Assembly: GCA_947166445.1 (NCBI GenBank)
Contig: CAMVED010000003.1
Location: forward strand, 589 to 64,588
Source: an uncultured Mycoplasmatota bacterium
GTDB taxonomy: Bacteria; Bacillota_I; Bacilli_A; RF39; UBA660
Length of the DNA: 64,000 nt
Direction: 5' to 3'
The notes beneath the pieces are model-generated. The model did no database searches, had not been told where the DNA came from, and saw only the letters and a list, made by a program, of their open reading frames with translations. A program made the translations under genes and the position numbers. Position 1 is the first letter of the stretch. The number at the start of each line of letters is the position of its first letter. Below are positions 12,612 to 39,047 of this stretch, piece after piece.

Positions 12612-12618
12612 AAAACCA

Positions 12619-13770
12619 CTACTTTTCTACTTTAATTTCTAACATTTTAGATTTTAATTCTTTTTCAATATCTTCTAAAGTCTTTTCAGCTTCAGCTCTC
12701 TTTATTCTTCCTTCTTCATGAATCTTAATAACTGTATCTAATGTTTCTATTAAATTTTGGTTTGTCTTTTGTAATGTTTCAACATCTACAATAGCTCTTT
12801 CACTTTCTCTAGCTATATCAATAGAACCTTGTTTTAAAGTTTCACTATTCTTTTGTAACATTTCGTTAGTAAGTTTAGATACTTCTTGTTGTGTTTTTAA
12901 AGCACTTTTTGCATTATTTATTCCAAGAGCAAGTACCATTTGGTTCTTCCAAAGTGGAATTGTATTTGTAATAGAACTTTGAATTTTTTCAACTAGTTCT
13001 GCTTCATTATTTTGTAAAAGTCTAATTTGTGGTGCCATTTGAATAGAAATAATTCTAGTAGTTTTTAAATCATATATTTTCTTTTCAAATCTATTAATTA
13101 AAGCTTCCATATCATGAACTTTTTGTACATCTAATTGTTCACCACTTTTTTCTGCAGCTTCTTTTAATTTAGGAAGTTCTTTAGTTCTTAATTCTTCAAG
13201 TTTTCTTTCTCCTGCGATAATATATAAAGATATTTCTTTAAAATATTCAAGATTCTTTTCATACATAGTATCAAAAATAGTAATATCTTTTAACATTTGA
13301 AGTTTATCTTTTTCTAGACCTCCTTCAATAGTATCGATATTCTTTTCAATTTTACTATACTTAGCTACTATAAAATCAAATTCTTTTTTAGCACTTGTAA
13401 ACAACTTAGTAAGAAGTCCCTTCTTAGCACTACCACTTACATCTTTATCAAAAGATTTAATTTGACTGACTAAGTCTGCAAGAAGATCTCCTACTTCACC
13501 TGTATTTTTAGTTTTAACATCTTCCAAAATACTATCAGAAAACTTTGATATTTTTTCTTGAGCTGCAACACCATATTGTAATACTTGAGCAGAATCTGTA
13601 AGATCAATTTTTTTATTAAATTCATCTATTGCTTTTTTTTCTGCTTTAGATAATTCGTCATAGTTAAGTGACTTTTCAATTTGTTTTTCAGTTACTTCTT
13701 TTTCATTAACTAAACTTTCTAATTTTTTTTCATCAACTTTTTGTTCTACTTTTAATTCTAAATTATTCAT
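12619..13770 (-). CDS. telA: TelA-family (toxic anion resistance) protein
   Basis: Coiled, all-helical 383-aa protein with LQYGVAAQEKISKFSD, typical of TelA/YaaN. Confidence 0.8.
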   Translation of the reverse strand: MNNLELKVEQKVDEKKLESLVNEKEVTEKQIEKSLNYDELSKAEKKAIDEFNKKIDLTDSAQVLQYGVAAQEKISKFSDSILEDVKTKNTGEVGDLLADLVSQIKSFDKDVSGSAKKGLLTKLFTSAKKEFDFIVAKYSKIEKNIDTIEGGLEKDKLQMLKDITIFDTMYEKNLEYFKEISLYIIAGERKLEELRTKELPKLKEAAEKSGEQLDVQKVHDMEALINRFEKKIYDLKTTRIISIQMAPQIRLLQNNEAELVEKIQSSITNTIPLWKNQMVLALGINNAKSALKTQQEVSKLTNEMLQKNSETLKQGSIDIARESERAIVDVETLQKTNQNLIETLDTVIKIHEEGRIKRAEAEKTLEDIEKELKSKMLEIKVEK

Positions 13771-13773
13771 ATT

Positions 13774-14985
13774 TTAACTCTCCTTTAAATAATCTATTAA
13801 TTTATTATAAGTGTTCATCTTTAAACTAGAAACTGTACTAGTAATTGACTTAGGAACACCAATACCAAGTCCTGAAACATCATAAGTTCCCCCAGTTACA
13901 CCAGTTCTAAATCCATATTTTTCCCATGCTATTTGACTTATTTCTGGATCATTTATTGCTTTATATACTTTTGCACCATTATCAGAAAATACCATAAAGC
14001 AATGTGAATTCCAAATAGTTGGTGCTGGATAAAGAATTGTAACTTCTTCTTTTACTCTATTAAATGCATCTGGACTAGAGTTTGCAAAATCAATCATACT
14101 CTTTTCATAATCTACAATCATTGGTTCTCCGCCCATACCTGTTTTTAAATATCTTTCAAATAAGTCTGCTGGAGTATTGTTCATATATCCTGATTTAATA
14201 TAAAAATCTTTTAATTTAGGTAAATTCTTTTTAACATTTGTACTATTTACTTGACCTTCACTAAGTACTGATAAAAGAAGTCCATAATATGTAGCACCAG
14301 GTGATGATGATACAGGATCTGTTGATGCTATATTTATAGTACCGTATAAAGATCTAAGTCCAATATCTTTCCATTTTTTACCTTCAAGAATATAATCAAT
14401 TAATTTATTCATATCAGTAATATAGTAAACACCATCATCATTAGTAACAATTTTTTCTTTAATAAGAGCTTCTACTACTTTATCCCAGCTATAAATAACT
14501 ATTGGAGTATTTAAAGTAAGTCCCCCATCAAGAACTGTATATCTATCAGCTTCTCCTGCATCTTTATTTGGAGCAAGTTTATAGTAATCATAAAATCTTT
14601 GATCTGATGTAAATAGTGCATCGTATTTAGTTACTCCTGGAGAATTAATTGAATAAGTTTTACCATTTTCCATACTAGATACTATATCTTGATTACCAAG
14701 ACCTACACTTTCTCTAATAAGTGGTTTAGTAATAGTCTTACCATTACTCCAAGTATCAAATACAACATTTAATTTATATTTTTTTCTTAATATGTTTTTA
14801 ACATCTTTATCGTTTAAGAAATCTTCTTTTCCTCCACCTGTAGCAACATATACTGTAGTAAGCTTACCAATCAAAGGATTTTCCCCATCACTATTAGTAA
14901 AGTTCTTAATGAAAATCATTGCAAGTACTAGTACTACAAATATTATAATACCTACAACCACATTTTTATTCTTCACTTTGATCAC
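13774..14985 (-). CDS. Membrane-anchored extracytoplasmic protein, solute-binding-protein-like
   Basis: N-terminal TM segment VVVGIIIFVVLVLAMIF. The body resembles the N-terminal half of the neighbouring vWA protein. Family not identified. Confidence 0.5.
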   Translation of the reverse strand: MIKVKNKNVVVGIIIFVVLVLAMIFIKNFTNSDGENPLIGKLTTVYVATGGGKEDFLNDKDVKNILRKKYKLNVVFDTWSNGKTITKPLIRESVGLGNQDIVSSMENGKTYSINSPGVTKYDALFTSDQRFYDYYKLAPNKDAGEADRYTVLDGGLTLNTPIVIYSWDKVVEALIKEKIVTNDDGVYYITDMNKLIDYILEGKKWKDIGLRSLYGTINIASTDPVSSSPGATYYGLLLSVLSEGQVNSTNVKKNLPKLKDFYIKSGYMNNTPADLFERYLKTGMGGEPMIVDYEKSMIDFANSSPDAFNRVKEEVTILYPAPTIWNSHCFMVFSDNGAKVYKAINDPEISQIAWEKYGFRTGVTGGTYDVSGLGIGVPKSITSTVSSLKMNTYNKLIDYLKES

Positions 14986-15598
14986 TACCTTTCATAATAA
15001 GATTATCATCCACTATTCCATCTGCTTTTAACATTAAATTATACACTTTCATATCTGCATCTGCATCTATTATATCATTTTGATATAAATTAGATAAAAT
15101 TGTTTCAAAAGCATTATTAGTATCACTAATCATTTTATCAGCTTTAATCATGAAATCTTTTCCTTCAGAAGAGACAAGTTTTTGATTTTCAACTTCATCA
15201 TATTTATTTACTATTTTTATTAAAACTGGTAAATAGTACTCAAAAAAGTTATCAATTTTATTAGCCTTTTTAGGATTACTTTCTACTGTTAAAAGTATTT
15301 TTTCAACAGTATCGTGTATCTCTTTAAGATTCTTTTTAGTTTCAGCAGACTCAACTTTAGGAATTAAACTAAGTATTTCCTTATTCTGTTTCCTTGCTTT
15401 AGTTATTTTCAAATATAAACTTCTATTAGTATCTTTTAATAGTTCTTTTGTCTTAACTCCAGATAAAACTAATTCTGAAGCTCCAAAAGCTGCTGCACCA
15501 ATAGCAAGAGCTGGTGCAAGTGTAATTGATAGTCCTAAGTAAGGAATTGCAAAAAATGTACTCCCTACTACTGCCGATATTATTTCTTTATTCTTCAT
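14966..15598 (-). CDS. XpaC-like (5-bromo-4-chloroindolyl phosphate hydrolysis family) membrane protein
   Basis: Two N-terminal TM helices and a helical C-terminus. Its position next to telA mirrors B. subtilis xpaC-yaaN. TAATG stop/start overlap with the upstream gene. Confidence 0.55.
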   Translation of the reverse strand: MKNKEIISAVVGSTFFAIPYLGLSITLAPALAIGAAAFGASELVLSGVKTKELLKDTNRSLYLKITKARKQNKEILSLIPKVESAETKKNLKEIHDTVEKILLTVESNPKKANKIDNFFEYYLPVLIKIVNKYDEVENQKLVSSEGKDFMIKADKMISDTNNAFETILSNLYQNDIIDADADMKVYNLMLKADGIVDDNLIMKGSDQSEE

Positions 15599-17214
15599 TA
15601 GTTGTAACTCCTTACTTCTGTAAATGCCCTTAGAAGTCCACTTTTACCATCAAATACTTTAGCATTACTAAGTTTTGCTAAATCTTTTAATTGGTAATCA
15701 TCAGAACTACCAAAAGTAATACTGTAAATTGGAACAGTTTCATTATTATTTTTATAATAATTCTCTAAATCATCAAATGAACCACTATTAGAATATCCAT
15801 CAGTCATTAATATTACTGTTTTAGTATATTCATTGTCATTATCTTTCTTTAGAATCTTTAAGGCTTCAATACTTGGATCATATATGTTTGTACCACCCAT
15901 AGCTTCTAAAGAATCTATATCTTTAATTACACTTGAAGTATCATTTCCATATTTAGTATCAAACACTTTATCTACATCACTATTAAATGTAATAACTGTT
16001 ATTTTATCTTTATCAGAAAACTGTAAATTATCTTTACTTGCAGTTTTATAATCAAGTATGTAATTCATAGCATCTTTAAGTTCAGAAAGGCCCCTATTAT
16101 ACATACTACCAGATGTATCTAAGCAAAATACTACATGAGTAGGTTTTCTAAGTGCTTCAATGTATAAATTAATAGCTTCAGTAATAACCTTTTTACTAGG
16201 ATATTTCATATCTTTCAAGTATTTAGTAGTATCAATACCCCAATCAGGATTAAATATTTTTTTATCTGCATCTTTATTAGTACCACCATACCAAGAACGA
16301 TATCCATATTTTTCCATCAAGTTGATTGCTTCATCACTACGTAAATAACTTTGAATCTTAATAAACTTTTCTTTATTTTTAGTATCAGTAGCATCATTAC
16401 TTATATAAGCAAATGGCATATCATTAATAGCAACTCCATCTACTGGATAAACTAAATATAAAGGTTCTTTACCTTTTTTAACTAATGATTGATTAAGTTC
16501 AATTAAAGAACTTTCATAGTTAATCATTGCATCATAATCACCATTTTTAAACATATCTGTAAGATACTCTTCATCACCACTTACACGTTCAACACCCTTA
16601 AAGAATGATTTTAAATCATTTTTTAAAGATTCACTTTTAAGCATATCAGTAGTAAGAACTTCAGGATTACCCGCTAAACTATTTAAGAAACTTAAATAAC
16701 TAGTAGCACCTGTATTAGTCTTAGTAACTGATGCCATAACATATTTTAGTTTTCCGGATTTAATACTTTCAAGTAAATCTTTGTTATATACACGATTACC
16801 TACAAAACCTAATTCTTTAGCTTTACTTTTTGTAATTCCCATAACAACTGGATCAATTACAATAGATTTACTATCAGTAGTCAAATAAGAATTGTTAAGT
16901 TGATATAACCAAATAGAATTAGATATCCAAACAGCATCATAATGACTACTATCAGAATTAAGCATATCAACAATTTCTAAATCACCATAATGTTCAATTT
17001 CGACTTTAATGTGATTCTTCTTACCATATTTAATTATATGATCATCCATCTTCTTAGTAGATGTCGAAGCAATAATACGAAAAACACTATCTTCGCTATA
17101 ATTATCATCAAGAACATTATCACAAGAACAAGATGAAATCATAGAATAAATAACGATAAAAATAATAGTACAAAAAAGCCAATGTTTTTTCAAAAAATCA
17201 TCCACACTATTCAC
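15598..17214 (-). CDS. Secreted or anchored solute-binding-like plus vWA domain protein
   Basis: N-terminal TM or signal segment. MIDAS DTSGSM in VVFCLDTSGSM, plus MTDGYSN. Confidence 0.75.
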   Translation of the reverse strand: MNSVDDFLKKHWLFCTIIFIVIYSMISSCSCDNVLDDNYSEDSVFRIIASTSTKKMDDHIIKYGKKNHIKVEIEHYGDLEIVDMLNSDSSHYDAVWISNSIWLYQLNNSYLTTDSKSIVIDPVVMGITKSKAKELGFVGNRVYNKDLLESIKSGKLKYVMASVTKTNTGATSYLSFLNSLAGNPEVLTTDMLKSESLKNDLKSFFKGVERVSGDEEYLTDMFKNGDYDAMINYESSLIELNQSLVKKGKEPLYLVYPVDGVAINDMPFAYISNDATDTKNKEKFIKIQSYLRSDEAINLMEKYGYRSWYGGTNKDADKKIFNPDWGIDTTKYLKDMKYPSKKVITEAINLYIEALRKPTHVVFCLDTSGSMYNRGLSELKDAMNYILDYKTASKDNLQFSDKDKITVITFNSDVDKVFDTKYGNDTSSVIKDIDSLEAMGGTNIYDPSIEALKILKKDNDNEYTKTVILMTDGYSNSGSFDDLENYYKNNNETVPIYSITFGSSDDYQLKDLAKLSNAKVFDGKSGLLRAFTEVRSYN

Positions 17215-18033: not shown

Positions 18034-19035
18034 TCAATGGTAGATATAATTATTTATTACTTCAATTATTTTATTACCATGAACATTCACTTTAACACTG
18101 GGTAAAACAGTATTTAACTCTTCAATAGTTTTAGGTAAAGCTTCAACTATTGTATCTAATTCTTCATTAGTAAATATATAATACGCTGGTATATTCATCT
18201 TTTTAGATCTTTCTTTTCTAAAAGAAATAAGTTTTTCCTTTAAAGAAACATTATCATCCTTTTGATAATTATCCAAAACCAGTTTATTTTTATAATAATA
18301 GTAATAATTAGTTTTATCTTCAACATTAGAGTTCAAAAATGTTTTGGCCCATACTTCAGTAGAACTTTTACTACCCCATAATGATTTATCAGATAGTTTT
18401 AAATCAGTTTCTATTTTCCTTATAAGACCATCTGCTCTAACAACTTTATCTTTTACATCATCAGGTGCATATCTATCATTAATAATTGTTTCATCGTTTG
18501 CAGCACATACTAATACTCTATGAATATTAGTAAAATTATCCTCATTTATCAATCTTCTTACGTAGTTAAGAACTTTATTAGAACTTAAACTTGTATTCCA
18601 AAGCTTCTTATAAACATCTCTTTGTGCTTCAACTTGTCTTAAAGGTGAATACATACCTTTTAAAATCTTTTTACCATTGTAGTTGTTTTCTCTTAAAAAA
18701 TCTCCTTTATTATTAATAGTAATGTTTCCATATAAATTTTTACATTCGATAAAGTAACAACAATATCTAGTAACTACAACAAAATCTATTTGAGCTTTTA
18801 AATTCTCATACTCTATATTTATATCGTGTAAAACATACATACCTATATTTGCTTTAGATAATTGATATCTTATTTCTTTTTCTCCTTTAATACCCTTTTT
18901 TACAACATATAACTCTTCTTTTATCTTTTTATTATTTGGATATTCTTCTAATAACTTTTCAAGAGCATCAAGTCTTTTATTTAAACTAGAAGATTCCTTT
19001 AAAAAAATTGTATCTTTAAATGTATCAAACAACAT
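18034..19035 (-). CDS. NERD domain protein with C-terminal HRDC-like module
   Basis: GEKEIRYQL...DFVVVTRYCCYFIECKNL is NERD-like. The C-terminal NIPAYYIFTNEELDTIVEALP is HRDC-like. Start moved to M14. Confidence 0.7.
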   Translation of the reverse strand: MLFDTFKDTIFLKESSSLNKRLDALEKLLEEYPNNKKIKEELYVVKKGIKGEKEIRYQLSKANIGMYVLHDINIEYENLKAQIDFVVVTRYCCYFIECKNLYGNITINNKGDFLRENNYNGKKILKGMYSPLRQVEAQRDVYKKLWNTSLSSNKVLNYVRRLINEDNFTNIHRVLVCAANDETIINDRYAPDDVKDKVVRADGLIRKIETDLKLSDKSLWGSKSSTEVWAKTFLNSNVEDKTNYYYYYKNKLVLDNYQKDDNVSLKEKLISFRKERSKKMNIPAYYIFTNEELDTIVEALPKTIEELNTVLPSVKVNVHGNKIIEVINNYIYH

Positions 19036-19190
19036 ATTTTTCGCCCCAATCCTATTACATTTACATTTTATCATAAAACAAAATATTTTGTAGAAAAAAA
19101 TATGTTTTTGCGCAAAAAAGAGTTTTTCCTTTGATCCTTTTATTATGTGGTTTCAAACATATTCAATACACATAACGATTCCATTTGATT

Positions 19191-20714: not shown

Positions 20715-21146
20715 TTAGTTTACACAAGAAAGTAGATTTAAAGTCTTGGAATCTTTCTTTCCATTGTAAAACTTATCAATAATTTTTGAAAAAATATCTA
20801 TCGAAGGATCAATATAATTAAATAAAGTCATACAAGAGTTTAGTTTCAAAGCATCTATATATCCAAGAATATCATAAATGCTATCATTCAGCTTATATAA
20901 TTCTTCAGATATTTCTATTAAATGTTTTCTTAATATATCATTATTTAAATATTCTTTAGCTTCATCTATACTTTTAATAGAATAATAATTAGAGGTGGAA
21001 CTATGTCCTAAACCATTAATTTGAGGAAATATATACCATATCCAATGCGACCATTTTCTTCCGCTTTTTATTTCATATAATGCTTTATCATAATTACCTT
21101 CTTGTGCATCTATAAATCTTTGTAAGTTGTAAGGATCTGTTTTCAT
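20715..21146 (-). CDS. DUF1810 family protein
   Basis: DPYNLQRFIDAQ...YDKALYEIKSGRKWSHWIWYIFPQ matches the conserved DUF1810 N-terminus. Confidence 0.7.
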   Translation of the reverse strand: MKTDPYNLQRFIDAQEGNYDKALYEIKSGRKWSHWIWYIFPQINGLGHSSTSNYYSIKSIDEAKEYLNNDILRKHLIEISEELYKLNDSIYDILGYIDALKLNSCMTLFNYIDPSIDIFSKIIDKFYNGKKDSKTLNLLSCVN

Positions 21147-21148
21147 AA

Positions 21149-22081
21149 TTACTTCCCTACTTTCTCTTCAAACTTAGTTGCTAAGTCAATTAAGTAATTC
21201 TTTCTTAATAATTTATCTAACCAAGTTTTAGGAATGCTTTCAATTCCATATATAATACCAGCCATAGATCCTGTAACAGCACCAATAGTATCAGTATCAT
21301 TTCCAATATTTGTAGAAGCAATAATGGCATCTTTATAATTATTAGAATTCATTATTATCCATAAAGAAGCTTCTAAAGTATCAACTACATATCCTGTAGA
21401 CTTAATATCATCTAATGATAAATCTTTAATATTATTTTTAAGTACTCTATCATAACAATTAATAGCTTCTTCTCCATAAGAACTATAATCTAAAAACTGG
21501 ATATTTTTATACGCCTCTTCTTTAGATAAACCTTCGAGTAAATAAATAACAAACCTTACATATAGATAACAACCAAGTTTACTTATATTATGAGAATGAG
21601 TTAGAGATGATATATCATTTGTTAAACTAATAATCTCTTCTTCTTTTAGTTTTTTAGAATAAGAGTAAAGTGCTACAGGCAAAATCCTCATTAATGAGCC
21701 GTTACCGTTAAGGTTAATGTTATTAGTAGCACATTCTAATGGACTAATACCATAACTAAAATTATGTATAGCTTTTAAACAAGTTCTACCTACGTCAAAT
21801 ACTTCATTATTTGCAGTATATTCTGCATAATTAATCCAATTTAACCATTTATTCATAATATCGTAATAATCAAAACATCCTTTTTCTATAAAAGAATCAA
21901 TTGTAGCTATTTCCATAGAAGTATCATCAGACCAAGATCCTGCGGGAACAGAATGTGATCCATATCCTTTCATTTCAGTTACAGGATTCATTAATAGTTT
22001 TTCTCTTATACAAAATTCAGTAGGAACACCCATAGCATCTCCAATAGCATGTCCTATTATAGAATCAATATATTTACTCAT
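21149..22081 (-). CDS. ADP-ribosylglycohydrolase family protein
   Basis: IGDAMGVPTEF and GNDTDTIGAVTGSMAGIIYG. Start moved to MSKYIDS. The gap to the DUF1810 gene is 2 nt. Confidence 0.85.
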   Translation of the reverse strand: MSKYIDSIIGHAIGDAMGVPTEFCIREKLLMNPVTEMKGYGSHSVPAGSWSDDTSMEIATIDSFIEKGCFDYYDIMNKWLNWINYAEYTANNEVFDVGRTCLKAIHNFSYGISPLECATNNINLNGNGSLMRILPVALYSYSKKLKEEEIISLTNDISSLTHSHNISKLGCYLYVRFVIYLLEGLSKEEAYKNIQFLDYSSYGEEAINCYDRVLKNNIKDLSLDDIKSTGYVVDTLEASLWIIMNSNNYKDAIIASTNIGNDTDTIGAVTGSMAGIIYGIESIPKTWLDKLLRKNYLIDLATKFEEKVGK

Positions 22082-22157
22082 AATATCACCTAGAGATATT
22101 ATAACACACAAAAATAAAAAGAAAGGATTTGGTAACTAAAACAAATCCTCCTTAAAA

Positions 22158-23216
22158 TTATCTTACAATCATTCTATCTATTTTATTAGATATTTCATCA
22201 TCTAGTTCTCTTATTTTTTTAGTTATAGACTTATTATAATCAATTAGTCTCAATACTTTATTTTGATCTATATCAATACCTTTTGTATAATTAGTAAAAC
22301 CTATTCTATGATTGTTATTTTTAATATTTTCTAAAGACACTAAAACACTTATATTATTTATTTCTTCATTTGACTTTATAATTTTTTTAAGATTATTATC
22401 ATTAACTTTTGACAATTCTTTTATGCTTATTTTTAAATCATTCAAATCTTTATTCTTATATGGATTCTTTTTACAAAATTTAATATAAGTTTTATCTTTA
22501 TCAATCATTATAGTTTCAATTGTTTCAAACGTATCACTATAATTAGAAATATCACTATATTTACATATCATAAATATATCTGAAACAATCTTATGTTTTT
22601 TTACAACATATTCTTTAGCATCAATATATTTCTTCCCATCGTTAATATAAATAATAGAATCATATTTTTTTATATTTATTTCATTTGATATATTAAAATA
22701 TTCTCTTTTAATACCTAATATTTCATCTAATAATTGATTTTTAAAAAGTTTGTATTTAGTACTATTAATATCACATATATCAACATTTGGATGATTGATA
22801 TATGGAATATCATAATTAGATATAAGCAAGTATTTTTTATTATTCTCTATATATGCATCAAGGACTCTATCCTTATAAATACTAATTTCATAATCTTCGA
22901 AAGCTATTTTTCTTATAATTTCATATATTTTATACTTAACAAAACAACTAACTAATCCTCTTCCAATAATTATTTCAGAATATTTTTCTTTAAGAAAAGG
23001 AATTAACTCTTCTACTTGACCATTAATTATTTTAGAATAATCTAGTTTTTCTCTTTCTATAATATATTTAGAGTATAATAATAATTCATAAAAGAATGAA
23101 GCACCAATAGTTACATTATCAGTTTTATATTTATTAATATGCTTTTTAATTAATTCAAGTAATTCTTTTTTCTGTATATTATCTTTATTATTAACATATC
23201 TAATATTACTTTTCAT
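22158..23216 (-). CDS. Hypothetical 352-aa protein (no catalytic motif recognised; C-terminal helix resembles HsdS conserved region)
   Basis: ORF with an 11-nt overlap onto the HsdS-like gene. The C-terminus reads ...VLRLIDYNKSITKKIRELDDEISNKIDRMI. Confidence 0.55.
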   Translation of the reverse strand: MKSNIRYVNNKDNIQKKELLELIKKHINKYKTDNVTIGASFFYELLLYSKYIIEREKLDYSKIINGQVEELIPFLKEKYSEIIIGRGLVSCFVKYKIYEIIRKIAFEDYEISIYKDRVLDAYIENNKKYLLISNYDIPYINHPNVDICDINSTKYKLFKNQLLDEILGIKREYFNISNEINIKKYDSIIYINDGKKYIDAKEYVVKKHKIVSDIFMICKYSDISNYSDTFETIETIMIDKDKTYIKFCKKNPYKNKDLNDLKISIKELSKVNDNNLKKIIKSNEEINNISVLVSLENIKNNNHRIGFTNYTKGIDIDQNKVLRLIDYNKSITKKIRELDDEISNKIDRMIVR

Positions 23217-23784
23217 CTTTAATTACCTCGTTTATCATATATTTTTTTATTGATTCATCATTTTTAATAAGTTTTTGATAAAGTCTATTTCTTTCATTTA
23301 TAGGGCGAATAATATCAATTAACTCATTTTGTTTATCTATTGGAACTAAAGGTATTTCTATTTCTTCTATATCCCAAAGAACTAATCCTTCTTCTCTACT
23401 TTTTCTTTCCATAATTTGATTTATCCCAAAGTATTCTAAATATTCTGCAATAAACTCAAGATTATAAAGATTATTATCATAAGGATTTCTTAAAACAAAG
23501 AAATTCTTTTTTATTATTACTTTATCATTATTAAGTGATGAACAATACCCAACATGATTTGTATTTTTCGAAGGTATTGAGGCTATTATAATGTCATTAG
23601 GTTTTAATAAGTACTTATCCTTTATATTCATTTTAATTTTTTGAACACCTGAATTTGAATAATTAATGACACAATTTTCAACATCTTTAGTATCAATTAG
23701 ATAAGCATCCATTGCTTCAAGACTGTTATCATTTTCTATACGTAGGCCTTTATAAATATCTTTAAAAATATCTTTTAATTTCAT
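23206..23784 (-). CDS. Type I restriction S-subunit-like protein (single target-recognition domain)
   Basis: LKDIFKDIYKG..., NDIIIASIPS..., FFVLRNP...EFIAEYL, IEIPLVPIDKQNELIDII follows the HsdS TRD plus conserved-helix pattern. Start moved to M6 (GAGGTGG RBS). Confidence 0.55.
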   Translation of the reverse strand: MKLKDIFKDIYKGLRIENDNSLEAMDAYLIDTKDVENCVINYSNSGVQKIKMNIKDKYLLKPNDIIIASIPSKNTNHVGYCSSLNNDKVIIKKNFFVLRNPYDNNLYNLEFIAEYLEYFGINQIMERKSREEGLVLWDIEEIEIPLVPIDKQNELIDIIRPINERNRLYQKLIKNDESIKKYMINEVIKDEK

Positions 23785-23837
23785 ACCAATCCACCTCATT
23801 AATTAAAATTATGCTATATTATATCACACTTTTTCAT

Positions 23838-23860
23838 TTTTGACTAATTTTTAGTCAAAA
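23838..23860. promoter_or_regulatory. Perfect palindrome TTTTGACTA-ATTTT-TAGTCAAAA between the macro-like and HsdS-like genes
   Basis: Direct reading. It contains TTGACT on both strands. On the minus strand a TGTGATATAAT extended -10 follows. Confidence 0.4.
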
Positions 23861-23862
23861 GT

Positions 23863-24366
23863 TTATATATAATTCTTTTTTTCACTTTTCTTATTAAAAA
23901 TAATATCAATATTAATATCTTTTTTTATAATATAATCTTTAAATAATTTATATATTTTAGGACATATTTCATTTGATTTGTAATCATATATCTTGTTTTC
24001 GATACTAAAGCACAAAACATTTTTATATTCATTTTTATTTATAATATCAAGCATAGTGCTATAAGTATTTAATAATAATTTATTACATTCATTATTATTA
24101 AAATATGGATATCTTATAAACATTAGATCAGATTTCAATTTAAAACTTGGTGTGATTCTAATATCTCCTACTTTCATTCTTTTAATTAAAGTATACTTTT
24201 TATTAATATATTTTTTTAGAAGTTTTATATTTACTTTATTAAAAATAATAAATGATGCTTTATTAGTATTTTCCATTGTAGAAGTACATGGAATAACAAT
24301 TAAATCATAATTAGATAAAAGTTCTGTATATAAAACTTTTTTGGATACCAATCTAAGCCTACCCAT
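23863..24366 (-). CDS. Hypothetical protein, possibly a macro-domain-like fold
   Basis: DLIVIPCTS...GDIRITPSF...LMFIRYP...NVLCFSIENKIYDY loosely follows the macro pattern (IVNAAN / G.a.iT / viH..gP / siafP). Start M13 lies 1 nt after the upstream stop. Confidence 0.4.
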   Translation of the reverse strand: MGRLRLVSKKVLYTELLSNYDLIVIPCTSTMENTNKASFIIFNKVNIKLLKKYINKKYTLIKRMKVGDIRITPSFKLKSDLMFIRYPYFNNNECNKLLLNTYSTMLDIINKNEYKNVLCFSIENKIYDYKSNEICPKIYKLFKDYIIKKDINIDIIFNKKSEKKNYI

Positions 24367-24367
24367 T

Positions 24368-25675
24368 TTAAATGTCCTTTTTTTCTTTATTAAAACTATC
24401 AATTATTTCTTTTATTTCATTTTCAAACAATATTTTTTTATCCTTTAGTTCATTTGCTAAAGCATCTAATATATGTCTGTTTTCTATTAACATTGTTTTT
24501 ACTTCACTATAATAATCAGTTATAGTTCTATTAGCATTATCTTCTTTTGACATCTTTGCTTTTTCTGATGCTCCATAGAAATTACATGAATTAAAATCAT
24601 TCATACAATAGTCATCTACAAGTCTTCTTACAATAGTATAAGCTCTATCTAAATCTGAAGATGTACCAACATCACATGAATTAAAAACTACTTCTGTTGC
24701 AGCTTTTCCTGCAAGTAAAGTTTTAACTCTATTTGTCATAAATTTAATATCTGAGAAATAATCATCATTATTATGAAATGTTGTAAATCCTCTTGTATTG
24801 CTATCACTTTTAGCTATAGTAATGAATGATACTGAACCAGGTTCTAAAAGTTCTCCAATTAAAGCATGTCCAGCTTCATGATAAGCAACATTAATAGCAT
24901 AGTTATCTTCTTGGTTAATATCATTAATAACTGCTTCATATTTTAATTCAAGAGCAGCTCTAACTAAGTCTTCCATATATATTTTCTTTTTATTATCGTA
25001 TGCTGCATATATACCAGCTTGATTACATACATTTTCAAGTTCAGCACATGATGTATTTGATAATATACAAGAAATATTTTTAATATTTACATTATCATCT
25101 ATTTTTTTTGATTTTAAATAATGAGTAAATACTTTTACCATATCTTTTTCTTTAGGAATATCTATTAAAAGTCTATTATCAAGTCTACCTGCCCTTTTAA
25201 GTGATTTTGGTAAAGAACTTATATCGTTAGCAGTAGCAATTACATATATATCTTCATCTTTTATACTGTCTATAAACGATTGAACAGCAACATATTCTTC
25301 ATTATTATTAATAAAACCTCCATTTTCTGAAAACTTATCTATATCATCTAATAGAATGATTGAGGGTTGATTCTTCTTAGCTTTATCAAATATTCCATTC
25401 ATATAATTAATAAAACTTCCATCAGATTTTACCTTTCTAATAACATATTTTGTCCTTTGAACATTATTCATAATTTCATTAGCTATACTAGTTTTTCCAG
25501 TTCCGGGAGGACCATATAGTAATAAACCATGTGACATAGCACATCCCATTTTTTTATATTTTTTTCCATTGTTTAACATATCAACAATAGTTTTCAATGT
25601 TTTTTTGATATCATCATAACCTATAATGTTATCAAATATTTCTTTTTCTTTTTTTAATTCTTTTTCTTTTTCCAT
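24368..25675 (-). CDS. Soluble FtsH-like AAA+ ATPase fused to an M41-type zinc metalloprotease domain (no TM segments)
   Basis: Walker A GPPGTGKT, Walker B IILLDDID (Asp where FtsH has the catalytic Glu), RAGRLD, HEAGH zinc motif and a downstream SSDLDRA. Start at M7 with an AAGGAG RBS. Confidence 0.8.
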   Translation of the reverse strand: MEKEKELKKEKEIFDNIIGYDDIKKTLKTIVDMLNNGKKYKKMGCAMSHGLLLYGPPGTGKTSIANEIMNNVQRTKYVIRKVKSDGSFINYMNGIFDKAKKNQPSIILLDDIDKFSENGGFINNNEEYVAVQSFIDSIKDEDIYVIATANDISSLPKSLKRAGRLDNRLLIDIPKEKDMVKVFTHYLKSKKIDDNVNIKNISCILSNTSCAELENVCNQAGIYAAYDNKKKIYMEDLVRAALELKYEAVINDINQEDNYAINVAYHEAGHALIGELLEPGSVSFITIAKSDSNTRGFTTFHNNDDYFSDIKFMTNRVKTLLAGKAATEVVFNSCDVGTSSDLDRAYTIVRRLVDDYCMNDFNSCNFYGASEKAKMSKEDNANRTITDYYSEVKTMLIENRHILDALANELKDKKILFENEIKEIIDSFNKEKKDI

Positions 25676-25764
25676 AATATCTCCTTCTTTCAAATTCGAT
25701 ATTACTATTAATTCTTTGATATAGAAATGAATTATTTTGACTAAGGATTTAGTTAAATGATTAC

Positions 25765-25795
25765 ATAAAAAAAGTCATAGCTACAATTTGCTATG
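25765..25795 (-). terminator. Rho-independent terminator after the DUF262-DUF1524 gene
   Basis: Hairpin CATAGC-AAATTGTA-GCTATG followed by ACTTTTTTT on the minus strand. It overlaps the stop codon. Confidence 0.6.
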
Positions 25796-28817: not shown

Positions 28818-30059
28818 TTATTTTTTTAAGCTATGTATTGTTTTTGATCCTTTGTGACTAGAACCCCTTAATAGGCTTGATACTATTGGCTCCCATTCAT
28901 GTCCACATATTTTACATTTTGCTTTAACAGGATAATGCCTTCCCTTATACTTACCTATTATTTCTACATTTGGATTCTTAATTTTTAGTTCTTCAATTAG
29001 CTTTTTTTCATCTTTTAAGAATTTCTCATGAGCTTTTATCGTTCCACATTTTTTACAGCCATCACCTCTTATTAAATTTGCTGGTATTCCCCTCCACTGA
29101 AAACCACACTTTTTACATTTGACAAGAATTCTTCTGTTAGCGTTTTCGTATTTTCCAATCACTTTTACAGAAGGTAAAATCTTATACATTTCTTTTAAAA
29201 AATCTTCGTGAGTTTTACATTTAGCTAAAGAATACGCTTGTGTTTCAATATCGTTCCACTCGTTTTCATTAAAATCACATTCTATGCCGCATACCTTAAA
29301 TAAATCTGCTACCAATTTTTTTATTTCTTTTCTATCAGATTTATTATAATCATCTTCAAACACAATACAGTTATCTTTGAATGGTTTTATCTCATTTTTT
29401 GGGAACTTATCATATACTGTTATCAATTTAAATCCTTTATTATTACAAAGCTCTCTTTTTTTCTCATCTCTTTTTATATATTTTCTATGTAAAAACCAAT
29501 TTCCGGGTTCTATAGCTATTTTTAATTTTGGTATTAAAATATCAAGTTCCATACCAATTAGTTTCCTATCTCTAGAAATAACTTCAGCTTCTGATAGTTT
29601 CTTTATAAAAGAAATCCTAATAAATTGTTCCATAAAACTTGTGCCTGATTTAGCACACCTAGGACATCCGTGTCCTTGTAATAGAGAATAAGCTCTTGCT
29701 TCCCATTCATTATTACATCTATTACATTTACATTTTATCATACTTTTATTATTGCTATAATTTGATTTTACAAGTATATCTTTATTAATTTTATACAATT
29801 CATTTATAAAGTCGTCCTGACTTTTTCTGGCTGTTAAGCCTTTATTATTATTTAATCCTCTAATCGTTTTACATTTTGGACAAGCTCTTCCAGATAATAA
29901 GGAATAGGCTTTAGCATCCCATTCAAATCCACATTTATTACATTTAGCTTTTATGTAATCTGTTGCTTTTGTATATTTACCAACAATAGTAACTTTATTA
30001 TTTCTATTTTTTATTTCTTTAATAAATTGCTCATGAGTTTTTGTCAAAGATATCACCAT
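28818..30059 (-). CDS. Four-fold zinc-ribbon repeat protein with central Vsr/DUF559-like endonuclease core
   Basis: Four modules of the form KC.KCG.EW.....SLL.G.GCP.C; the last has lost its second Cys pair. The central MELDILIP...IAIEPGNWFLH...KGFKLITVYD resembles a Vsr-type PD-(D/E)xK fold. Confidence 0.55.
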   Translation of the reverse strand: MVISLTKTHEQFIKEIKNRNNKVTIVGKYTKATDYIKAKCNKCGFEWDAKAYSLLSGRACPKCKTIRGLNNNKGLTARKSQDDFINELYKINKDILVKSNYSNNKSMIKCKCNRCNNEWEARAYSLLQGHGCPRCAKSGTSFMEQFIRISFIKKLSEAEVISRDRKLIGMELDILIPKLKIAIEPGNWFLHRKYIKRDEKKRELCNNKGFKLITVYDKFPKNEIKPFKDNCIVFEDDYNKSDRKEIKKLVADLFKVCGIECDFNENEWNDIETQAYSLAKCKTHEDFLKEMYKILPSVKVIGKYENANRRILVKCKKCGFQWRGIPANLIRGDGCKKCGTIKAHEKFLKDEKKLIEELKIKNPNVEIIGKYKGRHYPVKAKCKICGHEWEPIVSSLLRGSSHKGSKTIHSLKK

Positions 30060-30719: not shown

Positions 30720-31769
30720 TTATTTTATTTCATTTGCTATAACAATTCTTAATTTTTCAAGATCAATTTTTTCTTCGTTCACATATTCATTTTTTCTAGC
30801 AATTATTTTATTCCAAATACTCAGTATTTTTTTATTATTTATAATTTTATCGTCAAGTTTATAATCCTTTTGTAGTAATTCTTTGTGTACAAATAAAGAT
30901 ACAATAGTATTATCTATTATTGTATGAATTTTTTCTTCACTTCTATCAAAATTACTACTAATTAAGTTTAGATAGTAAACAACTTCTTCTCTAAAAACAA
31001 ATAAATCCAAATTTAAAATATCAGATAAATATATTAAATCAATAGCTTGACAAAATCTTCCATATAAGAATTCATATAAAGCTTCCATAATATCCATTGG
31101 ATTAGATGAGTCTATAATTCTTCCACTGCTTTTACAAAAATTAACAATTTTTTCTGTTATATTTTTACTTATATCTTTTTGGTGAGTAAATATGTAATCG
31201 GCTTTAACAAGCTTATTTAGTTCTTCTACATCATTAACACTTTTAGAATAATTTATCAAATCTTCATTACTTTGAATTGGATAATTAGTAAATTCAGTCA
31301 ATGATTGATATGTAAATCTGTTACTAATATAGTTTATATCATCTGAAATATCTGGATAATACAACCTCATTGGAACTATCAATATGTTATTTTTATTGAT
31401 TAATTTTTTATTATCTATAATATTATCAACAATACATATCAAGATTTCTATAATTCTATTTTCATCTATTACATCGTTCAATCTAAACATATTAATCATT
31501 TTACAAATAGGTTCATCCATTATTACCGCATTATTAATGCATAAAGGCAACTTGTGCTCATATTCACTAAAATGAATATACATAGCACCACCAATATATG
31601 AACACTTTTGATATTTTAAAAATTCACAAATAAACTGTTTTTTCTTCATCCAAAATAATTCTATTTCATCCAAAACATCCAAAAACTCATCTTGATTACT
31701 TAATCTTAGTTTTAATTTTTCTATTAACATCAAATATTGCTTATTAATATTTATTATTCTATGATCCAT
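30720..31769 (-). CDS. Hypothetical 349-aa protein (island A cargo, gene 2 of an unknown pair)
   Basis: Long ORF with an 11-nt overlap onto the upstream gene. No motif recognised. Confidence 0.6.
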   Translation of the reverse strand: MDHRIININKQYLMLIEKLKLRLSNQDEFLDVLDEIELFWMKKKQFICEFLKYQKCSYIGGAMYIHFSEYEHKLPLCINNAVIMDEPICKMINMFRLNDVIDENRIIEILICIVDNIIDNKKLINKNNILIVPMRLYYPDISDDINYISNRFTYQSLTEFTNYPIQSNEDLINYSKSVNDVEELNKLVKADYIFTHQKDISKNITEKIVNFCKSSGRIIDSSNPMDIMEALYEFLYGRFCQAIDLIYLSDILNLDLFVFREEVVYYLNLISSNFDRSEEKIHTIIDNTIVSLFVHKELLQKDYKLDDKIINNKKILSIWNKIIARKNEYVNEEKIDLEKLRIVIANEIK

Positions 31770-33195
31770 ACTTTCTCAATTCCTCTATTTTGAAATTTTC
31801 ATACTGTGAATTCAATAATTCTATAAATTTATTGGAAATCTTTATCATATCTGATTTTATACTTGAACACTTAACTTCAAAATTAATGTCTGACTGAAAA
31901 TGACTTTTATGCAATGGATTAGAACAAGAAACAGTAGCACTTTCTCTTATAGCACCCCAATGACCATGTGAAAACTGCACATCATAATCATACAATAAAT
32001 CATACAATTCTTTCTCGCCTATTTCTTTAAATCTATCTTTAATACTTTTTTTATCAAAATAACCCAAGTTAACATCAAGATATTCCTCAGATTTCAGTTC
32101 ATTGGAAAGAGCTTCCAACACTAAAGGTAACATATGTCCATATTCTTTTATTTTGTTATCACGTGCTTTAACATTGATAAGTTTATAATGTCCTAATCCA
32201 TCCTCAATATAATCTATGTATATATTTGGATTGGTCTTTTCTTCAACAACTAAAAATTTAGCAATCACGTAGCAATCCATTAACGTTCTCATTAGAATTC
32301 TACCTGATATTTTAAAGTATAAATCGTTCTCATCAATTTCGTTCATTATTTTTAAAAAATAATTAAAAATTGAAGTTAAAACATTGAATTTTGTATTGTC
32401 AAAATCTTTAGAATTTTCACAAACTAATAATGATAACTGTTTTTTTGCTTCTTGAATATATTCTTTCATATTTACATTACACCTTTCTTTATAATCTATA
32501 TAAAAGTTATCACAATCACTTACTTTACCAAGAACATCCCAAAAATATAAATAATAGTTTCTTGGTTCATATATAGGCTCAGCAGCTATTTCTGTACTTC
32601 TAATCAAGGATCTATATAATTTCATTCTTTCATCTGTATGATCTAAATAGCAATATTCTTTAATTGCATCCATTGTTTCCATTTCCTCAATAAAATGAAG
32701 CTTACCCTGCGCAAATAAAAAATAAACTATAATAAATCTTACATCAGTAGATACTTCTGAATGATCATCAATTAAATTTTTAATATTTTCTTTTATTTGA
32801 TTTATTCTATACTTGTTTGGCATCTTAAAATCATAAAATTTTTTTCTATACAATTCATTATTATCACAAACACAACAAAAAACATCCATTATAGTTTTGT
32901 CAATTGTTAATGCAATAAAATCATATAATTCACAATTGTTCAATTCTAACAAAGAAGAAAATCTTAAATCATTTATTTCAAGCTTATTATTTACTATGTA
33001 TTCAATAATACTATATACTTTCTTAAATCCTTCTTTGCGACCATACTTATTAAGTATACATCCAAGCCATAAATATTCAGGGACTCTTTCCTTATACCAA
33101 GATCTCAGAGTAAATTTATCGCCTATTACTGCATTCCATGGAGTTAACAATTGCTTCTTGACCAGTTTATGTTCTTTTAGTGTGCTATTACGCAT
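31759..33195 (-). CDS. Hypothetical 478-aa protein (island A cargo, gene 1 of an unknown pair)
   Basis: Start moved to MRNSTLKEH (AGGAGG RBS). All-helical looking, with a FSHGHWGAIRE motif near the C-terminus. No family recognised. Confidence 0.6.
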   Translation of the reverse strand: MRNSTLKEHKLVKKQLLTPWNAVIGDKFTLRSWYKERVPEYLWLGCILNKYGRKEGFKKVYSIIEYIVNNKLEINDLRFSSLLELNNCELYDFIALTIDKTIMDVFCCVCDNNELYRKKFYDFKMPNKYRINQIKENIKNLIDDHSEVSTDVRFIIVYFLFAQGKLHFIEEMETMDAIKEYCYLDHTDERMKLYRSLIRSTEIAAEPIYEPRNYYLYFWDVLGKVSDCDNFYIDYKERCNVNMKEYIQEAKKQLSLLVCENSKDFDNTKFNVLTSIFNYFLKIMNEIDENDLYFKISGRILMRTLMDCYVIAKFLVVEEKTNPNIYIDYIEDGLGHYKLINVKARDNKIKEYGHMLPLVLEALSNELKSEEYLDVNLGYFDKKSIKDRFKEIGEKELYDLLYDYDVQFSHGHWGAIRESATVSCSNPLHKSHFQSDINFEVKCSSIKSDMIKISNKFIELLNSQYENFKIEELRKYGS

Positions 33196-33302
33196 ATTTA
33201 ACCTCCTATCAAAAAAGTAGAGCATACCCCATTATTAAAATGAAATATTCTCTACTATCTGTAATTATATTATACCACTATTTCAATAAATATTAAACAC
33301 TT

Positions 33303-34238
33303 TTATAAAAAATAATCTTTTAATACTTCATCTAACATACCATATTTAGCTAAATGATAATTCATTAAATAATCCAGATTTCTAAACCCTTTTTGTAATT
33401 GATTCTTATCTTTATTATCCCAACACATTCCATCTGTTAATAAAATAAATCCTATATTAAGTTTCTTTAAATCATTTTGTCTATTTATGTAACTATCTAT
33501 AATTTCTTCCGGTTTTGAACCACCTCTAAAGAAATAGTCAACTTCTATATTTAATACTTTATTTTCTTTTACTAAAATAAAATCTGCTTTTCTATTTGCG
33601 ACATCCGAAGACACTTTAAATCCATAATCTTTCAATACTTTAAATTGTTTTTGAGATATCAAAGATATATCATATTTTTTACATACTTCAGAGATAATTG
33701 GCTCACATGCATCTTCAAATGCAGTTCCTCCTCTATTCTTTCTGCCATTTGAATCTAAGCCAACTAAAACTCCTATAACATAATCAATAACACTTTTTTC
33801 TAACAGGTTTTCAAACAAATCTTTTAATCCCATTTTTTCGAAAAAGATATAGTATATTTCAATCGTTTCATCAGATAGTCCACCACTTATTTCATTTACA
33901 TTAAAATTATATGAATAAAAATCATCTTCATCTAAATCTTCATTTACTACTTGTAGATCATTTTTACCTTTCCAAACATCTTTGCGTTCACTTTTAGAAA
34001 GGGCAAATAATAATGGAAAAGTTGCTATTACTGTAGGAATCTTTCTTGCTAATTCAACAAATTTCTTATGAATATCATCACATCTTATTAAAACATTCAT
34101 AGCATTTAATTCTATCTCAAAATTTCTATAATCAAGTACATTGCCCCAATTAACATAGAAGTTAAATCCTCTATTAGTTGCAACTAAATTATCAACGAAT
34201 AATTCAGCTAATTCATCATTACTCATATTTTTATACAT
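33303..34238 (-). CDS. dpnB: Type II restriction endonuclease, DpnII/MboI family (GATC)
   Basis: DYVIGVLVGLDSNGRKNRGGTAFE and NIEVDYFFRGGSK closely parallel S. pneumoniae DpnII (DYVTGVEVGMDTNGRKNRTGDAME; IEVNFYSGSGSK). Confidence 0.85.
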   Translation of the reverse strand: MYKNMSNDELAELFVDNLVATNRGFNFYVNWGNVLDYRNFEIELNAMNVLIRCDDIHKKFVELARKIPTVIATFPLLFALSKSERKDVWKGKNDLQVVNEDLDEDDFYSYNFNVNEISGGLSDETIEIYYIFFEKMGLKDLFENLLEKSVIDYVIGVLVGLDSNGRKNRGGTAFEDACEPIISEVCKKYDISLISQKQFKVLKDYGFKVSSDVANRKADFILVKENKVLNIEVDYFFRGGSKPEEIIDSYINRQNDLKKLNIGFILLTDGMCWDNKDKNQLQKGFRNLDYLMNYHLAKYGMLDEVLKDYFL

Positions 34239-34995
34239 TTTCTTCTAACCTCCTAATTGTAAGATCTAAATAATCTTTTTCTTTATCAATTCCTATATAT
34301 TTTCTTTTTAGCCTACTGGCAACAATGCCTGTAGTTCCACTACCATTGAATGGATCAAGTATTAAATCCTTTTCATCTGTAGATGCAAGTATTATTTTTT
34401 CTAGAAGTGCTATTGGTTTTTGTGTAGGATGTTTACCACACTTTTTTTCACTCGGTTTAGTTAATGATGTTTCCCATACATCTTTCATTTGTTTACCATC
34501 ATTTAATTCTTTCATCACATCATAGTTAAATTTATGTTTAGCTTTTTTTATGTCTTTTTTAGCCCATAAAATCGTTTCTGTTGAGTGAACAAAGGCACGA
34601 CAGCTAATATTAGGAGGCGGATTTAATTTCTTCCATGTGATGTTATTTATAACCTTAAATCCCTCTTCTTCAAGTGCCATACCAATTGAATAAATATTAT
34701 GCATCGTTCCACTTATCCATATTGTTCCATCATCTTTTAAAACTCGCTTACAGGCTCTTATCCATTTCTTATTGAAGTTATGCTTTTCTTTGATGCCTAT
34801 CTTCTCATCCCATTCCCCTTTTTTAACTGATACCATTTTACCTGCACTACAAGTTATTCCATCTCCTGACAAAAAATATGGAGGATCTGCAAATATCATA
34901 TCAATAGTTTGTGGCTTGATTTTTTTCAATAATAAAAGGGCATCGCCATGCAATAATTTAAAATCATCTTTTTCGTAGTAATAATCCTCACTCAT
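34231..34995 (-). CDS. dpnA: N6-adenine DNA methyltransferase, N4/N6 (DpnA-like) family
   Basis: FADPPYFL motif IV precedes DPFNGSGTTG motif I. Start moved to M4 (AGGAGGTG RBS). Confidence 0.85.
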   Translation of the reverse strand: MSEDYYYEKDDFKLLHGDALLLLKKIKPQTIDMIFADPPYFLSGDGITCSAGKMVSVKKGEWDEKIGIKEKHNFNKKWIRACKRVLKDDGTIWISGTMHNIYSIGMALEEEGFKVINNITWKKLNPPPNISCRAFVHSTETILWAKKDIKKAKHKFNYDVMKELNDGKQMKDVWETSLTKPSEKKCGKHPTQKPIALLEKIILASTDEKDLILDPFNGSGTTGIVASRLKRKYIGIDKEKDYLDLTIRRLEENV

Positions 34996-35029
34996 GTAAT
35001 GCACCTCCTATATATATTATTACCTTAAA

Positions 35030-35881: not shown

Positions 35882-36024
35882 GTTATCTACCTCCAATTAA
35901 GTACATATTAATTATACCATTAAAATAATATTTTTCCTATAAAACTAATTATTAATTACACAATTTTTAATAATACTTGCAATATCTTTTAATTTAAGTG
36001 ATTAATACAACAGGAGGTATATTT

Positions 36025-37907: not shown

Positions 37908-37919
37908 TTTCTTTACCTC

Positions 37920-37956
37920 TTTCTTTATAATTATTTGTTCTTTAGTTTGTCAGACT
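37920..37956. repeat. Left arm of a 37/38-bp inverted repeat bracketing the cro/cI module
   Basis: The reverse complement AGTCTGACAAACTAAAGAACAAATAATTATAAAGAAA matches 39048-39085 with one mismatch and one indel. Confidence 0.8.
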
Positions 37957-38998: not shown

Positions 38999-39047
38999 AA
39001 AAATCTCGTACTGCGAATACGAGATAGGAACTACCAAAATATGTTTC

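Follow-up and report, generated by a model that had tools for sequence, protein, structure and literature searches.

The 64-kb window analysed here is the whole stretch of DNA from positions 589 to 64,588 of contig CAMVED010000003.1, from an uncultured Mycoplasmatota bacterium. At positions 22158–25675, it carries genes for a soluble FtsH-like protease (A), an optional macro-fold protein (B), a half-size HsdS-like protein (C) and a predicted HsdM-like protein (D). This A-(B)-C-D cassette recurs in at least 16 distinct metagenomic loci. The initial annotation of the region knew of no named defence system with such a composition and suggested that a protease coupled to a DNA-recognition module would be new; none was found in PADLOC v2 or in the literature searched, and the arrangement is indeed recurrent and apparently undescribed. 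The cassette is rare and conserved, occurs in gut and rumen bacteria, and is probably an undescribed defence or conflict module. Its conservation and its operator-like palindromes tentatively point to an autonomous, self-regulated unit carried on mobile defence islands.

Composition and recurrence of the cassette

The window has a G+C content of about 25%, and its minus strand holds nearly all genes, including six co-oriented open reading frames (ORFs), A to F, whose coordinates and very small gaps or overlaps were confirmed as initially annotated. A (24368–25675) encodes 435 amino acids from the ATG at 25675, and its stop at 24368 is separated by 1 nt from the ATG of B at 24366 (23863–24366, 167 aa). 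C (23206–23784, 192–197 aa) lies in an ORF extending to 23799. Its likely start is the ATG at 23784, which gives 192 aa, is preceded by a GAGGTG ribosome-binding site and agrees with homologues of 190–192 aa. The overlap of C with D (22158–23216, 352 aa) covers 11 nt (23206–23216). The two further genes, E (21149–22081, 310 aa) and F (20715–21146, 143 aa), lie outside the conserved cassette.

The recurrence of the cassette was established from two groups of metagenomic loci. All six D-anchored contexts (L001, L002, L004, L211, L212 and L213) carry A, C and D in a row: A, usually a B-position gene (about 142–165 aa; in five of the six, with none in L004), C (190–200 aa) and then D. Ten further cassettes are among the A-anchored matches listed, from a sample of at least 120 loci chosen through one motif, the Walker B stretch IILLDD[LI]DKF that is specific to the family and was sought at DNA level, in which ORFs were called and neighbours clustered. 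A, C, D and, as an optional member, B do co-occur elsewhere; E and F occur with none of these other cassettes. The genes appear in the orders A-B-C-D, A-C-D, B-A-C-D and C-D-A, and the slot between A and C is empty in some loci and holds a DnaB-C-terminal-like gene in L167. Among the matches listed, every A accompanied by C and D shares at least 46% identity with that of the window, and none of the approximately 95 loci with more distant A proteins has C and D. Iteration of hidden Markov models (HMMs) from the B, C and D clusters found no further remote members among A-family neighbours.

D is 23–56% identical among the 16 loci, with full-length ORFs, and no helicase or nuclease gene, including a linked hsdR, lies inside any cassette examined. 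The persistence of intact ORFs, the C/D overlap, the operators described below and the linkage to A through four gene orders argues for purifying selection on the unit. The cassette moves as a unit among unrelated neighbourhoods, and in L004 it stands amid housekeeping genes. Flanks of 7–10 kb were fetched for nine long-flank loci and shorter ones for metagenome contigs; six of the nine carry restriction or defence genes. Other cassettes are followed by a small protein of 106–113 aa, DUF2779, GIY-YIG or metallo-β-lactamase (MBL)-fold proteins, or unrelated genes.

A profile search of genome contigs with the D alignment gave no match, and one with the A alignment was dominated by housekeeping FtsH proteins, only L009 (38% identity) being closer, so that these scans do not speak for a lack of the cassette in GTDB representatives. 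Two homologue clusters bear the source name 'Bacilli bacterium'. Across the 2.9 million viral contigs of IMG/VR, the exact A-family motif and the D family were absent; a profile scan recovered two closer relatives of A (42% and 36%), and the neighbours of the viral-contig relative L214 are GmrSD- and WYL-like genes, not phage genes. PLSDB contains a single closer relative of A (38%). Literature searches on FtsH or M41 proteins with HsdS or in defence found no description of the cassette.

Protease A consists of an AAA domain (Pfam, 3.8e-21) and a Peptidase_M41 domain (1.8e-21), and its family profile can be aligned from end to end with the cytosolic portions of FtsH and YME1 structures. The N-terminal membrane and periplasmic part is missing: the chain begins about 20 residues ahead of the AAA domain, and the TIGR01241 match begins at position 153 of the profile and reaches 205 bits, where the cut-off is 600. 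In a 35-sequence alignment, Walker A, the arginine fingers, HEAGH and the downstream Asp ligand are invariant, as is the Walker B motif LLDDID, in which Asp replaces the catalytic Glu of the FtsH pattern hhhhDE. The pore-loop region is shorter than in FtsH and YME1. The domain search and this alignment therefore bear out the initial description of the protease, with its motifs and its lack of transmembrane segments, apart from the length of 436 aa given there. A is an FtsH-type metalloprotease with an intact site and is apparently active.

C matches Methylase_S (Pfam, 1.5e-5) and Specificity_I (PADLOC, 3.4e-11), and weakly one half of the structure 1yf2, so that the similarity of this lone HsdS-like protein to type I specificity subunits is retained in sensitive comparison. 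It contains one Methylase_S domain, that is, one target recognition domain (TRD) with a conserved helix, instead of the two TRDs and two conserved regions of a complete HsdS chain. C and D adjoin and overlap in every cassette, with an identical 11-nt overlap in seven loci, and this constant adjacency and overlap suggests their translational coupling.

D had been annotated as a protein with no recognisable methyltransferase or nuclease motif. The absence of motifs was upheld, and D is not an orphan in kind, as it has a predicted HsdM-like fold. It has no match in Pfam, NCBIfam, PADLOC or PHROGs. The D family is rare: a word-indexed search gathered 21 members and an exhaustive HMM search of 1.84 billion representatives gathered 88 clusters, beyond which no sequence relative appeared; most members are 320–370 aa long, others are shorter pieces, and none exceeds 372 aa. 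The structural model (predicted local distance difference test, pLDDT, 81; predicted TM-score, pTM, 0.77) starts with a helical domain, continues with a Rossmann-like domain and ends in C-terminal helices. In a Foldseek comparison of this model with PDB, the eight best matches are type I HsdM subunits (PacII, 3lkd, 3khk), with E-values from 2.7e-8 to 1.9e-5 and TMq of 0.39–0.55, the best being 7vs4_B (E = 2.7e-8); 3ufb, other N6-adenine methyltransferases and generic Rossmann-fold methyltransferases follow. None of the 20 aligned members has the glycines of the S-adenosylmethionine (SAM) motif I or an NPPF motif, and 'YD-IIYIN[DN]' stands at the place expected for NPPF. D resembles HsdM in its predicted three-part fold and departs from it in sequence and in both motifs, and the prediction is that it pairs with the TRD protein C as an HsdM-like subunit without catalytic activity. 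A SpoIIIAF match of the D profile among PDB sequences (E = 4e-4) was regarded as compositional.

The rates at which the cassette proteins diverge are informative about C. Mean identities over 66 pairs of complete cassettes are 55% for A, 50% for C, 36% for D and 31% for B, and C is more conserved than D in all 66 pairs. In classical type I systems, TRDs are hypervariable and HsdM is conserved. The reversal of this pattern argues that C reads one constant target.

The macro call made initially for B survives both profile search and structure comparison. Pfam Macro scores 23.4 bits against a cut-off of 22, and all nine weak matches among PDB sequences are macro domains. The model, built from a 3-sequence alignment and of moderate quality (pLDDT 66), gives Foldseek TM-scores of 0.72–0.76 to macroH2A, YmdB and MacroD. 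B is nevertheless a divergent macro-fold protein in the loops that bind ADP-ribose, for which the patterns are N-x6-GG[VLI]D and G[VIA][YF]G. It lacks the Gly-rich loop 1, with no glycines in a region modelled at low confidence, and loop 2 reads YDY in the window protein and YG[YF] in most homologues. About ten of the 16 cassettes have B and about six do not, and it is the fastest-evolving member.

Operator-like palindromes at the cassette promoters

The cassette adjoins, as the initial annotation had noted, a GmrSD-like type IV restriction pair, in which the domain search found GmrSD_N with GmrSD_C in one gene and GmrSD_N with DUF7834 in the other. A hairpin resembling an intrinsic terminator (25776–25795, minus strand) at the end of the upstream GmrSD gene parts the pair from the cassette, and by this sequence feature the pair is a separate transcription unit. 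Between this hairpin and A lies an 8-N4-8 palindrome (25737–25756; minus strand TTAACTAAATCCTTAGTCAA) with one mismatch to TTGACTAA-N4-TTAGTCAA. A second palindrome, of the form 8-N3-8, is located between B and C (23840–23858; minus strand TTGACTAAAAATTAGTCAA). It is a perfect TTGACTAA-AAA-TTAGTCAA and the only exact TTGAC-N9-GTCAA within the window, and it stands directly upstream of an internal C-D promoter whose extended −10 element TGATATAAT (23818–23826, minus strand) is conserved in other cassettes. An explanation of the B–C palindrome as a plain terminator was rejected, since no U-tract follows it and it overlaps the conserved promoter.

Both sites recur at fixed positions. The 8-N3-8 site occurs at the same place, 20–44 nt ahead of C, in ten other cassette loci, and the 8-N4-8 site precedes the first operon gene in L001, L002, L109, L118, L128, L211 and L212, usually directly after the terminator of the preceding gene. 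The arms are conserved, the centre is variable and the spacing is fixed, and the core, GACT-N7-AGTC, is shaped like the symmetric bipartite targets of type I enzymes. Matches with at most two mismatches number 22 in the 3.0 Mb of DNA fetched, and all of them fall in cassette loci, at the two positions, compared with a mean of about 5 in shuffled sequence. Within the fetched flanks, operators occur only at the promoters of the cassette itself. In L001, the 8-N4-8 site precedes a gene for a DnaA ATPase fragment and in L002 a DnaB gene, and by this placement both genes are counted as operon members.

A second C/D subgroup (L006, L008, L095, L146, L167 and L192), with C about 30% and D about 25% identical to those of the window, carries a different palindrome, TAATC-N5-GATTA, in the equivalent promoter positions ahead of C, A or both; loci ordered C-D-A have two copies of it before C. 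The A proteins of L006 and L008 are 63–64% identical to that of the window, against 55–56% for L001 and L002. Since the loci with the closer A have the different palindrome, the operator type follows C/D and not A.

Candidate mechanism and competing explanations

The favoured reading, given a little less than an even chance, is that a dead M/S complex serves as a sensor-repressor at the operators and protease A as the effector. C, with one TRD, would be expected to dimerise and to form with the HsdM-like scaffold D a non-methylating C2D2 complex similar to M2S. This complex would bind its fixed symmetric site, which would be the cassette's own operators TTGACTAA-N3/4-TTAGTCAA, and keep the operon low. 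An invader would then strip the complex from the DNA. The likeliest agents would be anti-restriction proteins of the Ocr/ArdA type, DNA mimics that occupy the DNA groove of M.S complexes, and competing foreign DNA would be an alternative. Removal of the complex would derepress the unfoldase-protease A, together with B where present, and A could degrade either the invader's protein while the decoy binds it or a target of host or invader origin. Such a scheme would follow the decoy or guard immunity of Ronin and PrrC, with proteolysis as the output.

Several points weigh against this reading. The relation of D to HsdM is drawn from a predicted structure: the D family profile found no HsdM among PDB sequences, hhalign of D with EcoKI HsdM was negative (probability 0.03), and none of the 88 exhaustive HMM matches is of HsdM size. 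Operator binding by C/D is putative, as deduced from co-variation and from the absence of another DNA-recognition protein, and the palindromes may instead be read by an unlinked host regulator or act as an RNA hairpin. L004 and L213 have no palindromic operator before A, and the sole arm change seen, T to G in L213, would preserve a G-U pair. The Walker B motif with two Asp residues may leave A a poor ATPase. No toxic effector that would lead from proteolysis to protection is evident in the cassette. Finally, the many unrelated partners of A may mean that its role is more general.

In a broader version, regarded as unlikely, the A family would be the hub effector of an integrated-decoy immunity. 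Its partners in the operon would be host machines that invaders attack or hijack, present as disabled copies or as fragments, and would bait invader proteins for unfolding and degradation. The baits would be dead HsdM/HsdS, the DnaA ATPase fragment with its degenerate Walker A, the C-terminal domain of DnaA, DnaB, the zinc finger of DnaG and fusions with DnaA_N. In this cassette, the M/S decoy would double as operator repressor, and a DNA mimic would both switch the system on and become its substrate.

Known systems resemble parts of the cassette. The closest concept is Ronin, which consists of HsdS and HsdM without HsdR and of the 61-aa RonA, and in which methyltransferase activity is dispensable (Silas et al., bioRxiv 10.1101/2023.04.06.535777). 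Ronin is triggered by Ocr, ArdA and Aop1, and its upstream non-coding region is essential (bioRxiv 10.1101/2023.04.06.535777). Common to both is a type I-derived M/S pair without HsdR, tied to a non-nuclease effector and with an integrase nearby. However, the HsdM of Ronin is of the normal active type and its HsdS is full size, whereas D lacks the motifs and C has a single TRD. RonA is a small membrane toxin, in contrast to the 435-aa AAA-M41 protease, with or without a macro protein, found here, and the gaps in the cassette (1 nt, 63 nt and an overlap) are too small for a 61-aa ORF. Type I restriction–modification (R-M) systems share with the cassette the TRD with its conserved helix, the predicted three-part fold of D, coupled genes and a symmetric bipartite palindrome. 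They differ in having SAM and NPPF motifs and HsdR, while here the TRD is conserved above the M-like subunit and the conserved target sites lie only at the cassette's own promoters.

The protease has its own set of parallels. A resembles FtsH and YME1 in the full-length AAA and M41 match, Walker A, arginine fingers, HEXXH and Asp ligand. It differs from them in lacking the transmembrane and periplasmic part, in its Walker B and short pore loop, and in being island-borne; some loci hold two copies of it, and in some cases it carries a DnaA_N fusion. IetAS, reportedly a defence system described by Gao and colleagues in 2020, also employs an FtsH-type AAA protein. PADLOC IetA models match A on its AAA domain only (E = 9e-24), but a subtilisin-like IetS is missing and the NCBIfam model IteA scores 66.6 bits against a cut-off of 510, which places A outside that system. 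For the MoxR-vWA-FtsH ternary conflict systems, the part of the description by Kaur et al. (2020, PMC7159879) considered here gives an FtsH component with two AAA copies and does not mention M41. Compared with that partial description, the cassette lacks MoxR and vWA, which occur only near some distant A members, and it does not belong to these systems. In PrrC-EcoprrI and in ClpXP restriction alleviation, a type I complex either works as a sensor and sets another activity free or is itself degraded by an AAA+ protease. These analogies, however, concern complete, active type I enzymes, and the partners are an anticodon nuclease or unlinked host proteases.

HsdR is known to be controlled through degradation by ClpXP, and HsdM is the subunit on which HsdR docks. 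The cassette could be an anti-restriction device of a mobile element, in which the dead M/S pair mimics a type I core, captures host HsdR or other restriction subunits and passes them to A, as a counterpart of ClpXP alleviation encoded by the element. Such a device would fit an integrase-bearing element, the DnaA-fragment and DnaB genes within the operator-bounded operon (L001, L002 and L213), which are typical of mobile-element modules, and the nearest annotated relative of A, which lies between dnaX and DnaA/Hda and PolC genes on the Butyrivibrio megaplasmid pCY186 (L209). Still, it seems an unlikely account in view of the near-absence of A and the absence of D from the viral contigs and of the single closer relative in PLSDB. 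In addition, the element's own DpnII and GmrSD systems adjoin and would need sparing, and a pure adaptor needs neither a conserved TRD nor dedicated operators. The same replication genes in the operon, the operators overlapping both promoters and the metalloprotease encoded with them would also suit an ImmR/ImmA-like switch of element genes. Here, C/D would be an unusual repressor and A, when signalled, would destroy either C/D or a different regulator, which would control the element and not defend the cell; among the matches listed, no gene type adjoins the wider A family more often than WYL regulators (32 loci). This explanation is judged quite unlikely, because the visible regulon, as far as the fetched flanks extend, is the cassette itself, because the cassette travels as a unit between unrelated neighbourhoods, including the housekeeping surroundings of L004, and because neither a helix-turn-helix (HTH) repressor nor a COG2856-type protease is involved. 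That C and D are a decaying type I remnant beside an unrelated FtsH paralogue is barely credible. The lost methyltransferase motifs and the absent hsdR would agree with decay, but the full-length ORFs maintained in 16 loci at 23–56% identity of D, the overlap, the operators and the linkage to A would not.

The initial annotation had treated all six genes as one unit with an ADP-ribose-processing theme, in which the macro protein, the ADP-ribosylglycohydrolase (ARH) and DUF1810 would reverse the mark of an unrecognised transferase. Part of this theme stands: B has a macro fold and E is a bona fide full-length ARH (ADP_ribosyl_GH, 4.8e-71, 240 bits against a Pfam cut-off of 26.2), with the metal-binding motifs SDDT and DxDT in its translation, although Tri1 and DraG equivalog cut-offs are not reached. 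F is a DUF1810 protein (4.8e-52, 176 bits) that begins 2 nt downstream of E. Phosphatases, GNAT and PAD-like modification enzymes recur near the A family, and an ARH of E's cluster occurs near distant A genes in L158, L174 and L181, in the last directly upstream of A, which could be chance. The unity of the six genes, in contrast, was not upheld. ARH and DUF1810 accompany none of the other 15 cassettes and have no cassette operator. A terminator-like hairpin with a 10-bp stem and a U-rich tract (22109–22151, minus strand), weak taken alone (minimum free energy −10.7 kcal/mol, z-score −1.65), closes the cassette after D. It is followed by TGTTATAAT and the ribosome-binding site of E, and E has its own extended −10 element TGnTATAAT (22098–22106) between hairpin and gene. 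By this hairpin and promoter-like element, E and F look like a unit of their own. Family searches of the window proteins found no ADP-ribosyltransferase, SIR2 or TIR. The single DUF1810 homologue inspected in a plasmid context (Rhizobium) has no adjacent ARH, and nothing useful was found in the literature on DUF1810. What is left of the theme is a macro protein that is degenerate, optional and fast-evolving, and the three loci mentioned above, and a six-gene ADP-ribose system is very unlikely.

If the sensor-repressor reading is correct, the cassette would be the second known case, after Ronin, of an R-M core turned sensor. We know of no earlier one in which the methyltransferase subunit is inactivated, the sensor is also a sequence-specific operator protein and an ATP-dependent protease is the output, and the cassette would offer handles on the detection of anti-restriction proteins and on soluble FtsH in immunity. 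Whatever its function, the D family would, on its predicted structure, exemplify an HsdM fold that has diverged past sequence recognition, and the palindromes are a defined candidate DNA target for a type I-like TRD.

The wider protease family and the surrounding island

The A family extends well beyond the cassette, with more than 120 clusters at least 55% identical to the window's A. Hundreds of contigs from gut and rumen carry it, with partner sets of many kinds, which makes it a large unexplored group of island-borne proteases. After the WYL-WCX regulators, neighbours among the matches listed include DUF2779 (12 loci), GmrSD pairs (about ten loci) and Mrr, a metallophosphatase upstream and an SNF2 helicase downstream, and MoxR with DUF2201/vWA. 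MBL-fold, GNAT and PAD-like proteins and pieces of DnaA, DnaB and DnaG also occur. In a distant subgroup (L094, L104, L134, L185, L189, L203 and others), the layout is a PAD-like gene, WYL, sometimes Mrr, metallophosphatase, A, an SNF2 helicase of 900–1169 aa, MoxR and DUF2201/vWA.

Replication pieces stand beside A in L001 (7179–7655), L213 (5281–5574), L002 (6313–7671) and L108, and with the proteins P0029, P0032 and P0050; they comprise a DnaA ATPase fragment with a degenerate Walker A, a DnaA C-terminal domain, a full DnaB and a DnaG zinc finger. DnaA_N is fused to some A proteins. Two A paralogues share one locus in L164, L178, L191, L206 and L214. The notion that A is a housekeeping gene beside an integration hotspot was discarded in view of its permuted order with tight coupling, these paralogue pairs and the unrelated neighbourhoods. 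Close relatives of A without C/D (L007, L125 and L160; also L093, L177 and L148) have two flanking genes, one for a 207-aa protein whose C-terminal part weakly matches an HTH, the other for a 411-aa protein with an MBL/RMMBL fold; L148 has D upstream and the MBL protein downstream.

The region around the window's cassette looks, from its gene content, like an integrated mobile defence island. The defence setting proposed at the outset is thus corroborated by several systems in addition to the GmrSD pair. A tyrosine integrase is encoded at 39183–40298 and a phage replisome organiser at 36821–37648, with a Cro/C1-type HTH gene also in the stretch 36821–40298. DpnII R-M occupies 33303–35896, with an endonuclease and N6_N4 and D12 methylases. 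A short way upstream of the six-gene region, two overlapping genes at 30720–33225 form a recognised defence pair, the 349-aa protein being DitB (PADLOC, 5.7e-31) and the 488-aa DUF5677 protein DitA (4.8e-129). No tRNA and no Rfam family were detected in the searches made.

Further features lie on either side of the cassette. A 413-aa CapR-like protein (28818–30059) has four zinc-ribbon repeats of the CapR/DUF4379 type round a central domain and no PADLOC match. A NERD-HRDC protein at 18034–19074 is 52% identical to one at 5192–6208 of L002, the two lying near their cassettes on opposite sides. An exact 24-nt direct repeat (19052–19075 and 29719–29742), which encodes MIKCKCNR, has one copy where the NERD-HRDC ORF begins and the other within the gene of the CapR-like protein. 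Between the copies are 10.7 kb with a methyltransferase, the ARH/DUF1810 genes, the cassette and the GmrSD pair, and the repeat may be a recombination scar or an insertion boundary. At 11049–17214, genes for TelA, a 5-bromo-4-chloroindolyl-phosphate-hydrolysis-type protein, an SBP-vWA protein and an AAA ATPase form what looks like a tellurite- or stress-resistance-like module flanking the island.

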